Counted from the stretch's first letter, positions 25,955 to 30,400 are shown. The stretch is DNA of 64,000 nucleotides from Gammaproteobacteria bacterium (GCA_965243205.1 CBDEUK010000002.1:1472001-1536000), one strand, 5' to 3'. Numbers and translations are program-made. The notes: generated from the letters alone by a model not told the origin.

Positions 25955-26749
25955 ATGTTCACTCAACCACAAAATCGCTACCAAGCATTTGGTATTCATC
26001 TGTTAATCAGCGCAATCATTTTTATCGTACTTGCCGCTATCATTATCTTTATCTGGTACCCTGGCTTTTTATTTTGGGCTGATGGGGGCTGGCAAGGTAT
26101 TCGCCTAATTGCAGGTGTCGACTTTATTATTGGTCCTGTATTGACTTTGATGGTTTATAAACTTGGAAAGCCCAGTCTTAAATTTGATTTAACCGTAATT
26201 GGCATAATACAAATAGCCTGTTTAATCGTTGGTTGTTGGTTAGTCTATCAAGAACGTCCACTTGCTATGATTTATGCCAATGGCGGTTTTTACACTATGT
26301 CTGAGAACTCATTTGAATTTCATGACTATGATAGCCAAGAAGCATTGAAACATGACAGCAAAGTACCAGCTTGGATTTTTGTTGAACTACCTAAAGAAAA
26401 AGAAGCACGTTCTAAAATTTTAATAGAGCAACTTCGAGATGGCCCGATTCATTCTCGTATCGATTTATACCATCCATATAAAGACAACTTATCAGAGGTA
26501 TTTATTGAGAATATAGATCCAAAAACTTTGGATGAAAATACTCGCAATTCTTTATCAGAAAATGGCAAGCTCTATTTTTTCAATGCACGTTACTCTAGTT
26601 CTTATATAGAAATTGATAAAGACACCGGTAAATTTATTGCTCTTCATAAAAAACCTAAACCTAATTTTGAGAATACGGTTCCTTTAGAAGAAGCTATACA
26701 AGAGAAAGAAAATGATATTAGTAATCCTTCAGATGTTATCTCAGAATAA
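25955..26749 (+). CDS. TfpX/TfpZ (FimB-like) type IV pilin accessory protein
   Basis: AFGIHLLIS, WYP, VD..IGPVLT, K..LKFDL..I..IQ, RP motifs. Confidence 0.7.
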   Translation: MFTQPQNRYQAFGIHLLISAIIFIVLAAIIIFIWYPGFLFWADGGWQGIRLIAGVDFIIGPVLTLMVYKLGKPSLKFDLTVIGIIQIACLIVGCWLVYQERPLAMIYANGGFYTMSENSFEFHDYDSQEALKHDSKVPAWIFVELPKEKEARSKILIEQLRDGPIHSRIDLYHPYKDNLSEVFIENIDPKTLDENTRNSLSENGKLYFFNARYSSSYIEIDKDTGKFIALHKKPKPNFENTVPLEEAIQEKENDISNPSDVISE

Positions 26750-26772
26750 TAGCGATATAGAACTATCACTAA

Positions 26773-27363
26773 TTATTCAGATAAATTAACAATCTTAGAT
26801 ACTGCCTCTAAACGTTTATCTCTGCCGCATGAATAACGATAATATTTATATTTTAAAGAGTTTTTTAGATAGTAATCTTGATGGTACTCCTCGGCATGAT
26901 AAAACGGTTTTGCCAAAATAATTTCTGTTACTATTTTCTCTTTACCTTTTATTTTAGCTTGTAATTCTTTCTTTGATATTTCAGCCAATTTTGCTTCTTG
27001 TTCATTATTTGGGAATATAGCCGCTCGATATTGTGGTCCTTTATCACAGAATTGCCCTCTATCATCAAATGGATCAATGTTCTTCCAAAAAACACCAAGT
27101 AACTTTTCGTAACTGACAACAGTAGGATCATATTCAATTTCTATCGCTTCATAATGTCCGGTTTTACCTGTCGATGTTTTTTTATAGGTAGCATCTTCTT
27201 CTGAACCACCTGTATAACCTGAAGTTGTCCTTACGACACCTTCAACTTTATCGAATGGCTTTTCCATACACCAGAAACAACCACCCGCAAATAATGCGAT
27301 TTTTGTTTCTGCAGTAACATGAATACTTACGAAAGATAAAATAACAACAAGAATATAGCGCAT
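26773..27363 (-). CDS. msrA: Peptide methionine (S)-sulfoxide reductase with Sec-type signal peptide
   Basis: AGGCFWCME, GYTGG, GHYE, AEEYHQDYY; start moved to ATG at 27363. Confidence 0.93.
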   Translation of the reverse strand: MRYILVVILSFVSIHVTAETKIALFAGGCFWCMEKPFDKVEGVVRTTSGYTGGSEEDATYKKTSTGKTGHYEAIEIEYDPTVVSYEKLLGVFWKNIDPFDDRGQFCDKGPQYRAAIFPNNEQEAKLAEISKKELQAKIKGKEKIVTEIILAKPFYHAEEYHQDYYLKNSLKYKYYRYSCGRDKRLEAVSKIVNLSE

Positions 27364-27364
27364 A

Positions 27365-27877
27365 TCAACCTCTAAGCTCAGGTAATGGTTTATCATCAGG
27401 AACAAATTTTAACGCCAAACCATTATTACAATAACGCAACCCGGTTGGTTTTGGACCATCATCAAATACATGGCCTTGATGACCACCGCAGCGAATGCAA
27501 TGATATTCTGTTCTTGGCCAGAATAACTTTCTATCCTCTTTGGTACCAAGTCGTCCGGTTATAGGTTGATAAAAGCTAGGCCAACCCGTTCCGCTTTCAT
27601 ATTTTGTTTCAGATTCAAATAAAGGTAAATAGCATGCCGCACAAACAAATGTGCCTTTTTCCTTCACATCATTTAGCGCACTACTGCCTGGTGGTTCCGT
27701 GCCTTCTTCAAATAAGATATGAAATTGGTCATCCGTTAAAATTGATTTCCATTTATCTTCACTAGTATCGAGTGGTGTTTTATCAACCTGTTGATTAACA
27801 GGGTGAGCAATCAAAGTTCCTGCAGCTATTGCTCCTATACCACTCGCACCTAAAGTAAAAAATTGTCTGCGGTTCAT
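27365..27877 (-). CDS. msrB: Peptide methionine (R)-sulfoxide reductase with Tat signal
   Basis: MNRRQFF Tat motif, two CxxC, GWPSF, GHVF.DGP, RYCNNG; start at 27877. Confidence 0.93.
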   Translation of the reverse strand: MNRRQFFTLGASGIGAIAAGTLIAHPVNQQVDKTPLDTSEDKWKSILTDDQFHILFEEGTEPPGSSALNDVKEKGTFVCAACYLPLFESETKYESGTGWPSFYQPITGRLGTKEDRKLFWPRTEYHCIRCGGHQGHVFDDGPKPTGLRYCNNGLALKFVPDDKPLPELRG

Positions 27878-27962
27878 AGTTAAACTCCGGAAATAGTTAA
27901 CAAAAAAGACCTTATTCAATCATGATAGTTCAGACTAGAACCGCAAATTACCATTTTGTAAT

Positions 27963-28346
27963 TTAGAGTGCGTCGCCTATTGTCCTAGGAGAAACCGCCC
28001 AGGCATCATCCAAAGGTGCCATCGCTCGTTTTGGTTTTAAACATAAACCCATAGCCACCGTCGAAGCTAGAATAGGGTTATCCATTTGATTTTTCCAGAC
28101 CAGTTGTATTGCCTCAAAAATACGGTCTTTGTGAGAATCGGTTACTGGGGCATTCTCAATGACTACCAATAAATCGCGTAATGACATACCTTGTTTGAAT
28201 TGATATGCGGCTTGATACACATCTTTAGCAAATAATTCACAAGTATGATCCATATTTTTTCGATTGGTATAATTAACAGGTTCTGCAGATGCAAGCGCTG
28301 CAAATATCATTAACCATATTATTAAACTGGCAATAAACATTCTCAT
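27963..28346 (-). CDS. Hypothetical exported protein (2 Cys)
   Basis: 127-aa ORF with signal peptide (ALASA-E), GAGA RBS-like sequence; no recognised motif. Confidence 0.7.
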   Translation of the reverse strand: MRMFIASLIIWLMIFAALASAEPVNYTNRKNMDHTCELFAKDVYQAAYQFKQGMSLRDLLVVIENAPVTDSHKDRIFEAIQLVWKNQMDNPILASTVAMGLCLKPKRAMAPLDDAWAVSPRTIGDAL

Positions 28347-28398
28347 TTTAATTTCTCACAGTTTCTATGAGCCTCCTATTGGTTGGTAAAAGTAATGC

Positions 28399-28438
28399 AA
28401 AAAAAAAGGCCACTGATTTTTCAACCTGTGGCCTTTTT
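28399..28438 (-). terminator. Attenuator-type intrinsic terminator
   Basis: AAAAAGGCCAC-aggttgaaaaatca-GTGGCC-TTTTTTTTT on the minus strand, upstream of the 28346 start. Confidence 0.8.
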
Positions 28439-28458
28439 AAAAATATTTGCTTTTGTTA

Positions 28459-28557
28459 TTACAAATACAATTCCTCGACACACAGGCAAGGGTTGACCAC
28501 ACACATAAATGCATGGCGCCAATAAATAACCTGTTTTGTCGATAGCTTTATATTCAT
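28459..28557 (-). CDS. Putative leader peptide MNIKLSTKQVIYWRHAFMCVVNPCLCVEELYL (32 aa)
   Basis: Hand translation; lies between a near-consensus promoter and a terminator; 3' part complementary to the terminator 5' arm. Confidence 0.65.
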   Translation of the reverse strand: MNIKLSTKQVIYWRHAFMCVVNPCLCVEELYL

Positions 28558-28566
28558 AGGGCGCGG

Positions 28567-28595
28567 ATAATGTTCTTAATTTCTAAAGTTGTCAA
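28567..28595 (-). promoter_or_regulatory. Sigma70 promoter of the leader
   Basis: TTGACA (28595-28590), 17 bp, CATTAT (28572-28567), GC-rich discriminator CCGCGCC. Confidence 0.75.
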
Positions 28596-28702
28596 GTAAA
28601 TGGTTATAATTAAATCCTATATGAACTTTACATTGGGTTATTTATCTATTTTTCAATAACTTAAATTTATATATTTCTAATTTTAAGGATTACAGATTGC
28701 CT

Positions 28703-29122
28703 ATGCGAACTTTGCTTTTATCTTTTATATGTATGTTTATAGTTTCATGCAGCCAACCACCGGCAGTTGAAGCGATTCAAAATAGTATGGAAAAAATCGA
28801 AACCGCGGCTGAAAATAAAGATACATCCGCTATTATGAAATACATTCACGATAGTTTTCGTGGTAATGAACATCTTGATAAAACCCAGCTTCGAAAATTA
28901 TTGATGGTTCATTTTCTACGTCATAACAATATTACTGTGTTAATAACTCAAATGGACATCGAACATGATCCAACCCAACCATACTATGCAACAATGTCAG
29001 GCACAGTAGCGATTACAGGTGCAAAAAATATTCTGCCTCAAGATGGTAAAATTTATTCCTTAAAAGGAACTTGGGAATTCCATGGAGGCGATTGGTTATT
29101 ATCAGAGCTTACCTGGCAATAA
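28703..29122 (+). CDS. Lipoprotein, probable NTF2-like fold
   Basis: IVSC lipobox; Y.HDSF.G...W...G.DW pattern. Confidence 0.6.
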   Translation: MRTLLLSFICMFIVSCSQPPAVEAIQNSMEKIETAAENKDTSAIMKYIHDSFRGNEHLDKTQLRKLLMVHFLRHNNITVLITQMDIEHDPTQPYYATMSGTVAITGAKNILPQDGKIYSLKGTWEFHGGDWLLSELTWQ

Positions 29123-29858
29123 TATCGACAATAGGATCTTGTTCTCGCATAGAAGCCAGAACCACCTTATCAAACCGATCTGTTTGAGCTAAAGCTTCAG
29201 TAGCAGCTTTCGCTGCTAATTGTTGTAACTCAGTGTAATCAACCATATTAATCAGAGGTATCACTTTTTTCGAATCGCTATTCTTTAAAGAGCCTTCATT
29301 TGAAATTAATAATTTTGTGATATGTTCAGGTTGAAAGATTTCATTTTCGTTTAGGCCTGTTAACTCAGTCATCTTTTGCACACGATGAGTTATCTTATCA
29401 TTCAATGGCATACCTAATACTTTAGCGGAAATCACAGGAACAACGACATTAGCGATTTGTGGAATGATAGGTTCATGCTCTGCAGGCGCCTTGATAAACC
29501 GGCCACGAGCTCCATCAGATTTAACAACAATTAAGTCAAAATTTCCAAGCTGCTTAAACTCTTTTAACGATTCACAAGAAACGCCTGCTCGACGACCAAA
29601 ACGCTCAGAAGGTTTTGCGAACGCAATGGTTTTAGAATCTGTATCGTTTGCTATGGCATCTAATAATATCTGTTCTTCGCCAATATATTTCGTCGCATTT
29701 AATGAGTTTGGAAAATATTCTATGTGAGCTGTTGCTGTGATACCGACACGCCCTGAATGTGCATTAGCTAGTTGGAACATGGCTGTTTTCTTTCCACCTG
29801 CACCAACAAAACTCACAATGCCATTTTCAGCATTAAAGATTTCAACTAAATCTTTCAT
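29109..29858 (-). CDS. yqeC: YqeC family (selenium-dependent molybdenum hydroxylase accessory) protein
   Basis: VGAGGKKT, ITATAHI, KSDGARGRFIKAPAEHEP, LINMVD. Confidence 0.8.
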   Translation of the reverse strand: MKDLVEIFNAENGIVSFVGAGGKKTAMFQLANAHSGRVGITATAHIEYFPNSLNATKYIGEEQILLDAIANDTDSKTIAFAKPSERFGRRAGVSCESLKEFKQLGNFDLIVVKSDGARGRFIKAPAEHEPIIPQIANVVVPVISAKVLGMPLNDKITHRVQKMTELTGLNENEIFQPEHITKLLISNEGSLKNSDSKKVIPLINMVDYTELQQLAAKAATEALAQTDRFDKVVLASMREQDPIVDIIAR

Positions 29859-29866
29859 TAAAAATA

Positions 29867-30400
29867 TTAAGAGCTAATTGAACCTTCATATAAACTATGA
29901 GGATAATATTCTTTAATCAAAATAACGGGTAATTTATGGACATAAATTAAATATCGTTTTTCAGTAATCGTATTATCATTCGGAAATTTACTATAAATTT
30001 CTGTATCAAAAATTTCATGATTACTGACAATCTCTCGATAGGTTTCTAAATGACATTGTTTAATGATATTGCCGATGCCAATATTTTTTTGCATAAATAA
30101 ATCTACCACATCTGAATCTAATAAATTTGTTCTGATGTAAGAAAGGGCATAAGCATAGTGCTTTTTAGAATGCAGACCTTTTAAAAATACTGCGCGTTCA
30201 AGAATCGTTTCATTTTTTTCAACATCCTTCCAATCAAGAGGAGGCATGCTCATCTCCTGCTCTATAAATTCTATATCAACAGGCTCATTAAAAATCGACT
30301 CCAATAAACCCATAACTGAACCTTCGTTATTTACGATTAATTTTAATAACTTGGATTCAATGATGTTTTCTTGTTCAGATTGTAATACTGAGTTACTCAT
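29867..30400 (-). CDS. Chorismate pyruvate-lyase-like (UTRA fold, DUF98-type) protein
   Basis: EGSVM.LLE, R.V.L, YALS, IG.II, ETYREI, RY.I, I.EYY pattern. Confidence 0.65.
   Translation of the reverse strand: MSNSVLQSEQENIIESKLLKLIVNNEGSVMGLLESIFNEPVDIEFIEQEMSMPPLDWKDVEKNETILERAVFLKGLHSKKHYAYALSYIRTNLLDSDVVDLFMQKNIGIGNIIKQCHLETYREIVSNHEIFDTEIYSKFPNDNTITEKRYLIYVHKLPVILIKEYYPHSLYEGSISS

Follow-up and report, generated by a model that had tools for sequence, protein, structure and literature searches.

The window analysed here is a 64,000-nucleotide (nt) stretch of DNA from a gammaproteobacterium (GCA_965243205.1, CBDEUK010000002.1:1472001-1536000), in which the minus strand carries, between positions 28,595 and 27,963, a sigma-70-type promoter, a leader open reading frame (ORF) of 32 codons, an intrinsic terminator and a gene for an exported protein of 127 amino acids (127-aa protein), followed by msrB and msrA. 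The promoter, the ORF beginning 9 nt after it with no room for a Shine-Dalgarno (SD) sequence, and the terminator had been described in an initial annotation of this DNA, and each was found where it had been placed; all coordinates of the element in the window refer to the minus strand. The element is rather likely to be a ribosome-dependent (leader-peptide) transcription attenuator controlling the gene for the 127-aa protein and, in this genome, msrB-msrA as well. This reading is drawn from sequence comparison and agrees with the attenuation architecture assigned by the initial annotation: the ORF is coding-like, the terminator lies where it would have to be read through, and the antiterminator is conserved in 43-44 relatives.

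Distribution of the element and linkage to the gene for the 127-aa protein

A DNA search in relatives detected the element in five other genera, each time followed by a homologue of the 127-aa protein. An uncultured gammaproteobacterial family was represented by 126 genomes from 34 genera; tblastn found 46 copies of the protein in 45 of these genomes, from 10 genera, and the element profile matched upstream, on the same strand, of 45 of these 46 gene copies; in genome G113 only the terminator remains ahead of the contig end. A covariance model (R1) comprising the ORF and the hairpin was built from 43 sequences and gave exactly one match per genome in 46 of the 126 family genomes, of which 44 contain the gene for the 127-aa protein, with G098 cut by the contig end. 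R1 had no match in 150 further genomes, drawn from 150 other families in the class; the order containing the host family holds only that family, and the model search at order level repeated the family search. The element is tied to one gene in one clade, and its recurrence in 45 further genomes makes the arrangement in the window more than chance.

Two genomes depart from this arrangement. The second copy of the gene in G095 (locus L055) lies directly after the terminator of another gene and lacks both the leader element and the GGAGG-hairpin ribosome-binding site (RBS) described below. In G132 (L124:1080-1290) the element is kept with the gene absent downstream, and a 1-nt deletion shifts the leader frame after codon 7; the element in this one case looks like a decaying remnant.

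Coding signature of the leader ORF

The initial annotation had named conservation in relatives as one test of its proposal. The leader frame was open over 29-35 codons in all 44 complete copies, beginning with ATG in 43 and with GTG in 1, and the pairings described below were kept. Further counts were made on an aligned set of 43 element copies, with G088, G113 and G095b outside the alignment. Frame 1 stayed open over 29 codons or more in all 43 sequences, frame 2 in none and frame 3 in 19. No stop codon was observed in frame 1, versus an expectation of 14.8 under independent columns (5.0 for distinct codons), and the stops in frame 2 (101, with 92.9 expected) and frame 3 (32, with 40.3 expected) were close to expectation over the same copies. 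Column entropy at codon positions 1, 2 and 3 was 0.64, 0.77 and 1.01, respectively, the third position being the most variable, and three indels within the ORF are 3 nt long. The leader stop codon always lies 3' of segment 2 (Table 1), 6-27 nt beyond it, which matches the requirement of the classical attenuation model. The leader ORF is likely to be translated.

The constrained part of the peptide, as far as the alignment indicates, is its N-terminal two-thirds (K8, Q9, F11, W13, the His and Arg at 14-15, T16, L18 and C19), with a conserved core of K-Q-x-F-I-W-[H/R][R/H]-T-x-L-C. W13 was present in 43 of the 43 sequences and C19 in 42, and codons 14-15 always encode one His and one Arg. Codons for Cys are found at 19 and 26, and in some sequences also at 22, 24 or 28, scattered and without forming a tract. 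Searches of Pfam and NCBIfam with the leader peptide gave no match, a literature string search with leader-peptide fragments gave none, and no published description of the element was found in a literature search. A metal-binding small protein, considered for the spacing of His and Cys, was rejected because several genera have Arg for C26 and do not have H24.

Promoter and 5' end of the leader transcript

In a promoter scan the promoter of the window scored 10/12 and was the top promoter-like site within 26500-29300. A perfect TTGACA −35 box with a 17-nt spacer is found in about 30 of the 43 relatives, and their −10 box is [CG]A[AT]TAT. The −10 box of the window is separated from the ATG at 28557 by 9 pyrimidine-rich nucleotides (CCGCGCCCT) with no SD sequence; among 42 relatives, 30 share this length of 9 nt and the rest have 6-10 nt, and the three bases preceding the ATG are C in 32-39 of the 42. 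The first purine, about 7-10 nt past the −10 box, is the A of the ATG. The fixed distance between the −10 box and the ATG, together with the purine-poor discriminator, implies that the leader mRNA is probably leaderless, and we infer a transcription start site at the A of the ATG or beside it; a leaderless mRNA would also account for the missing SD sequence.

Alternative pairings in the leader RNA

The 172-nt transcript of the window folds with −57 kcal/mol (z = −5.3), and 0 of 200 shuffles folded as well. Its minimum-energy fold consists of a long hairpin across the ORF and the terminator; the antiterminator is absent from this fold and appears after masking of segment 1. The terminator hairpin extends over 28438-28403, with a T9 run ending at 28399 (RNA fold), and was unlisted by a simple terminator scan because its stem is interrupted. 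The basal helix, the apical hairpin and the terminator recurred in the minimum-energy folds of the 43 full transcripts, as judged by eye.

Pairing was quantified as the percentage of paired cells counted on alignments of the 43 sequences. The basal helix 1:2 was paired in 81.6% of cells; its support from covariation is weak because most of its pairs never vary. The apical hairpin was paired in 93%, with compensatory changes in 4 of 6 pairs. Within this hairpin, base 2 of codon 15 faces the synonymous base 3 of Cys19; 18 sequences have G-C there, 17 have A-U and 7 have G-U, and the synonymous base covaries with the H/R swap. Helix 2:3, the antiterminator, consists of 8 pairs and was paired in 96.5% of cells, versus 27-50% in slid registers, and the terminator helix 3:4 was paired in 90%. 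The mutually exclusive hairpins that the initial annotation had suggested looking for by folding (1:2, 2:3 and 3:4) are thus all conserved across the 43 sequences, and the complementarity it had noticed between the leader codons and the terminator 5' arm was borne out, with a duplex energy of −13.9 kcal/mol in the window and a range of −9.5 to −19.8 kcal/mol overall.

The central A of segment 3 (column 203) is A in 41 of the 43 sequences and pairs with segment 2 in 41, and with its terminator partner in 21; the C next to it pairs with segment 2 in 43 of 43, versus 35 of 43 within the terminator. Column 206 is C in G003, G014, G089 and G090 and A in G015 (three genera), and in each case segment 2 carries the matching base at column 126, but the terminator remains A at column 215. 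By this comparison the terminator 5' arm is conserved for pairing with the leader more than with its own 3' arm; an antiterminator requires such conservation, a plain terminator does not. When transcripts were cut before segment 4 and segment 1 was masked, helix 2:3 was part of the minimum-energy fold in 33 of 43. A further helix, in which the last codons pair with bases immediately ahead of the terminator (mean −5.2 versus −2.9 kcal/mol in shuffles; weak in the window), is moderately supported.

An Rfam scan of 27000-30000 at a permissive threshold gave no family and only chance-level matches to the terminator, the best of which (Phe_leader, 21.1 bits versus a gathering threshold of 55) is on the plus strand and covers the terminator only.

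Table 1. Features of the element and of the genes behind it (window coordinates)
Feature	Position	Strand	Description or basis
Sigma-70-type promoter	28567..28595	minus	TTGACA (28595-28590), 17 nt, CATTAT (28572-28567)
Discriminator, GC-rich, purine-poor	28558..28566	minus	9 nt between −10 box and ATG in the window
Leader ORF, 32 codons + TAA	28459..28557	minus	ATG at 28557; kept open in relatives
Segment 1, codons 6-10, 5' strand of basal helix 1:2 (putative anti-antiterminator)	28529..28542	minus	Folds; pairing counts
Apical GC-rich hairpin in the ORF, about codons 13-22, including W13-R14-H15 and C19	28493..28522	minus	Folds; covariation
Segment 2, codons 24-28	28475..28487	minus	Partner is segment 1 or the terminator 5' arm
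Segment 3, terminator 5' arm and putative antiterminator 3' strand	28421..28433	minus	Pairing counts
Segment 4 (terminator 3' arm) and T9 run	28399..28416	minus	RNA fold; terminator conservation
Ribosome-binding region of the gene for the 127-aa protein	28355..28376	minus	GGAGG, then small hairpin CUCAU-loop-AUGAG
Gene for the 127-aa exported protein (putatively regulated)	27963..28346	minus	ORF listing; signal peptide
msrB and msrA	26773..27877	minus	Pfam SelR 8e-44, PMSR 4e-60

Spacer, ribosome-binding region and read-through

The distance from the T-run to the ATG of the gene for the 127-aa protein is only 41-52 nt in 14 of 45 loci, and this space is filled by the GGAGG and hairpin RBS region; in 31 of the 45 loci the spacer is 79-626 nt long. 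About 8 nt lie between the RBS hairpin and the ATG, and the hairpin shortens an SD-AUG distance that would otherwise be ~25 nt. The GGAGG-hairpin is conserved before nearly all gene copies (about 44 related loci), and two genera keep it through compensatory changes (CUCUU/AAGAG and CUC-G-UAU/AUA-GAG). A mini-ORF (ATG-AGA-stop) between the SD sequence and the ATG of the gene was considered and rejected, since two genera keep the hairpin without a start codon. The promoter scan gave no promoter-like site between 28459 and 28346 in the window, and neither a promoter- nor a terminator-like site was found between 27963 and 27877, that is, between the gene and msrB. In the window the gene for the 127-aa protein appears to be transcribed only through the terminator, and the msr pair probably likewise.

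At least 23 of the 31 long-spacer loci contain, within the spacer, two or more short hairpins that are GC-rich and carry GGA in the loop (105 such hairpins observed versus 36 in shuffles), for example in L067:1870-2495 (G090), L028 (G134), L040 (G093) and L029 (G100). The spacer of G090 is made of three tandem units of ~170 nt, and a genome-wide origin of the hairpins as repetitive extragenic palindromic (REP)-type sequences was rejected because this repeat unit matches almost only its own locus. By analogy with CsrA/RsmA binding sites, the hairpins look like CsrA/RsmA binding arrays, which would sit in a 5' untranslated region transcribed only after read-through. One of six spacer loci scanned gave a sub-threshold match to the Rfam family CsrB (26.4 bits versus a threshold of 71, E = 6e-4), and csrA was found in 4 of 5 genomes checked. 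The window's own 52-nt spacer has no GGA-hairpin array.

The 127-aa protein and neighbouring genes

The 127-aa protein has a signal peptide, a helical bundle with a four-helix core (AlphaFold2 model, predicted local distance difference test score 76) and an invariant Cys pair. It gave no match in Pfam or NCBIfam, and comparison of the model with the PDB by Foldseek gave no match at E <= 0.001; a wide VIA-align search with the model reached a best Z of 5.1, with weak saposin-like matches, and no fold was assigned. The ESM Atlas returned only unnamed clusters. A profile search placed the family in 29 clusters among 1.84 billion representatives, and Pfam searches on 13 of these 29 gave nothing useful, two long matches looking like low-complexity noise. 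In G096 (L041), ATA is found where the ATG of the gene is conserved, and the ORF finder gave a 113-aa product from an internal ATG; the ATA may be a non-canonical start, a sign of a broken gene or an assembly error.

The initial annotation had taken the gene for the 127-aa protein, msrB and msrA as one block and had suggested a connection of the element with methionine-sulfoxide repair. Of this block, the orphan gene for the 127-aa protein stood as the conserved partner of the element (45 of 46 loci), and msrB-msrA proved to be local to one genus. msrB-msrA follows the gene in G000 and G001 only, and among five relatives with neighbours listed only in G001, from the genus of the window, and the gene for the 127-aa protein alone is the conserved downstream partner in 5 of the 5 relatives inspected. 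The connection with methionine-sulfoxide repair is not supported by this distribution, and co-transcription of msrB-msrA with the gene probably takes place in the window genome only. The two msr genes overlap by ~40 nt (27365-27405, ORF listing); at its start msrB has a signal of the twin-arginine type (RRQFF) and msrA one of the Sec type, so both reductases are predicted to be periplasmic. On the other side of the element, in 29109-30400 on the minus strand, a gene of YqeC type for selenium-cofactor biosynthesis (TIGR03172, 1.4e-45) adjoins an Rv2949c-like chorismate pyruvate-lyase gene.

Proposed mechanism

Transcription would begin at the A of the ATG or at a neighbouring base, and the leader ORF would be translated from a leaderless mRNA. 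The nascent RNA would first form the long hairpin of segments 1 and 2, capped by the GC-rich apical hairpin. Without a ribosome, the 1:2 hairpin would persist, the 3:4 terminator would form and transcription would stop ~160 nt from its start. A ribosome running to the stop codon would cover segment 2, again leaving the 3:4 terminator to form and transcription to terminate. We infer that a ribosome held on about codons 8-19 would instead mask segment 1 and free segment 2 for pairing with segment 3 (8 bp), so that RNA polymerase reads through. This geometry fits the stall zone around IYWRHAFM suggested by the initial annotation, and both the conserved residues and the stable apical hairpin fall within codons 8-19.

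Several observations weigh against this mechanism. Frame 3 is likewise open in 19 of the 43 sequences, and G087 and G120 read segment 2, the 3' part of the ORF, in another frame, from which the C-terminal residues appear to be dispensable. RNA structure and coding constraints overlap, and base pairing, to judge from the alignment, explains part of the apparent conservation of the peptide (H/R, C19 and L-C-V). The 5' end of the window transcript is predicted to be mostly paired (unpaired probability 0.21 versus a mean of 0.63), and such pairing would impede leaderless initiation if ribosomes did not load during transcription. In transcripts cut before segment 4 and left unmasked, helix 2:3 was already part of the minimum-energy fold in 34 of 43, so thermodynamics alone needs no ribosome; as the helix is found with or without masking, the choice between 1:2 and 2:3 must be kinetic, and a kinetic switch made of RNA alone is possible. 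The spacers of the 31 long-spacer loci could conceal an additional promoter. Finally, no tandem run of any codon was found in the leader codon table of the 43 aligned copies, in agreement with the initial annotation, which had seen no run of one amino acid in the window, and with no codon run and a regulated gene that is not biosynthetic, the classical logic supplies no signal.

An RNA-only switch would be a riboswitch-like, protein-binding or kinetic sensor that chooses between 1:2 and 2:3, with the open frame tolerated or incidental. It would account for the ribosome-free preference for helix 2:3 in the cut transcripts, for the tolerated frame changes of G087 and G120, for the strong covariation of the apical hairpin including the synonymous Cys site, and for the 5' side of the internal loop (UUUAUUUGG), whose nucleotides are conserved, those at third codon positions included. 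We nevertheless regard it as unlikely: stops are avoided in frame 1 only (0 versus 14.8 expected), the start codon is always ATG or GTG and keeps a fixed spacing from the −10 box, variability is highest at the third codon position, three indels within the ORF are of 3 nt and the stop codon always lies just 3' of segment 2; nor did the element match an Rfam family (best 21 bits versus a gathering threshold of 55).

The short spacers and the terminator 5' arm bear on a further explanation, in which the element is an independent small gene with its own promoter and terminator, producing a ~160-nt small RNA and/or a 30-aa protein, and is either a mere neighbour of the gene for the 127-aa protein or acts on it in trans; the terminator would be unregulated, and expression of the downstream gene would come from leak-through or a promoter of its own. 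Action in trans is known elsewhere for terminated attenuator RNAs and for leader peptides, as stated in excerpts on rnTrpL/peTrpL, the strong promoter and terminator predict a discrete, stable and structured transcript, and the long spacers in 31 of 45 loci could contain promoters. This explanation is quite unlikely in view of the 14 of 45 loci in which the ATG comes only 41-52 nt after the T-run, and of the conservation of the terminator 5' arm for pairing with the leader, which would be pointless in a plain terminator; moreover, the element was never found away from the gene and decays where the gene is lost (one case).

Sensing of a single amino acid (Cys, Trp, His or Arg) by the same attenuator, by way of uncharged tRNA at W13, H/R14-15 or C19, is improbable: although W13 (43/43), C19 (42/43) and the constant His and Arg at 14-15 lie where, by the geometry derived from the folds, a stall would free segment 2, and leaderless Cys-sensing small ORFs (sORFs) are described for mycobacteria in excerpts of one report (10.1101/834739), there is no tandem codon run, hairpin pairing largely determines the codons for Cys, His and Arg, and the regulated protein has no recognisable metabolic role.

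For the ribosome-dependent attenuator, the lack of a codon run favours a sensor of slowed elongation or a peptide-specific arrest. Our guess is that the signal is slowed elongation, the element being either a general sensor of translation stress or the site of a peptide-specific arrest to which the apical hairpin contributes; we consider it unlikely that the supply of a single amino acid is sensed, and the sensing of Met/Cys/aromatic supply or of oxidation, as put forward in the initial annotation, is pure conjecture. It is conceivable, if doubtful, that the core is a new regulatory arrest peptide with a hairpin-aided stall brought about by a small molecule or by translation or envelope stress, and that read-through also yields a CsrA-binding GGA array in most relatives; one switch would then release both an orphan periplasmic protein and a CsrA-binding RNA segment.

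Comparison with known systems and significance

The trpL, hisL, pheL and thrL leaders of Escherichia coli are classical leader-peptide attenuators of amino-acid operons. The element shares with them a short ORF (translated in the classical cases), four segments with exclusive 1:2, 2:3 and 3:4 pairings, an intrinsic terminator before the structural gene and a stop codon just beyond segment 2; it differs in that it has no regulatory codon run, a conserved peptide sequence, a probably leaderless mRNA, and an orphan exported target and not a biosynthetic operon. Regulatory arrest and antibiotic-responsive leader peptides include TnaC, SecM, SpeFL, ErmCL, BmrB and MsrDL, of which TnaC and SpeFL act through Rho, and SecM and the Erm leaders through RBS exposure. 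Like these, the element has a conserved, non-repetitive short peptide with an invariant Trp and is a suspected stall sensor; unlike TnaC, SpeFL, SecM and the Erm leaders, it would act on an intrinsic terminator, and no sequence relationship to them was found (Pfam, NCBIfam).

Excerpts of two reports describe a leaderless leader ORF at the transcript 5' end that controls an intrinsic terminator in Corynebacterium glutamicum ilvL (PMC11857589) and a leader ORF that starts at the transcript 5' end in Sinorhizobium meliloti trpL/rnTrpL (PMC6614838). As described there, both are similar to the element in that an ORF reaching the transcript 5' end (probable in the element) controls an intrinsic terminator, and differ in that branched-chain amino acids or tryptophan are sensed via codon runs before biosynthetic genes; they belong to other phyla or classes and have no sequence similarity to the element. 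The polycysteine leaderless sORFs of mycobacteria act, according to excerpts of a preprint (bioRxiv 10.1101/834739), by ribosome pausing and alternative RNA pairing, and the same features, a leaderless Cys-containing ORF, pausing and alternative pairing that controls a downstream gene, are proposed for the element. In the mycobacterial sORFs, as far as these excerpts go, a consecutive Cys tract leads to RBS unmasking (translational control) before cysteine-metabolism genes (10.1101/834739), whereas the element has 2-3 scattered Cys codons, an intrinsic terminator as target and no known link to cysteine.

Leader-peptide transcription attenuators are a known kind of regulator; unusual here are the conserved peptide without a codon run, the probably leaderless start and the orphan exported target. 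A well-conserved, sequence-specific leader-peptide switch would be added to a bacterial lineage known only from metagenomes, and it fronts a gene of no known function, not an amino-acid operon. If the mechanism is true, the element would provide a compact, naturally occurring sensor for translation speed or for some ligand, and the whole switch, at ~200 nt, is small enough for study in a heterologous host. The 127-aa exported protein, and in the genus of the window the predicted periplasmic methionine-sulfoxide reductases too, would be marked as tightly regulated.

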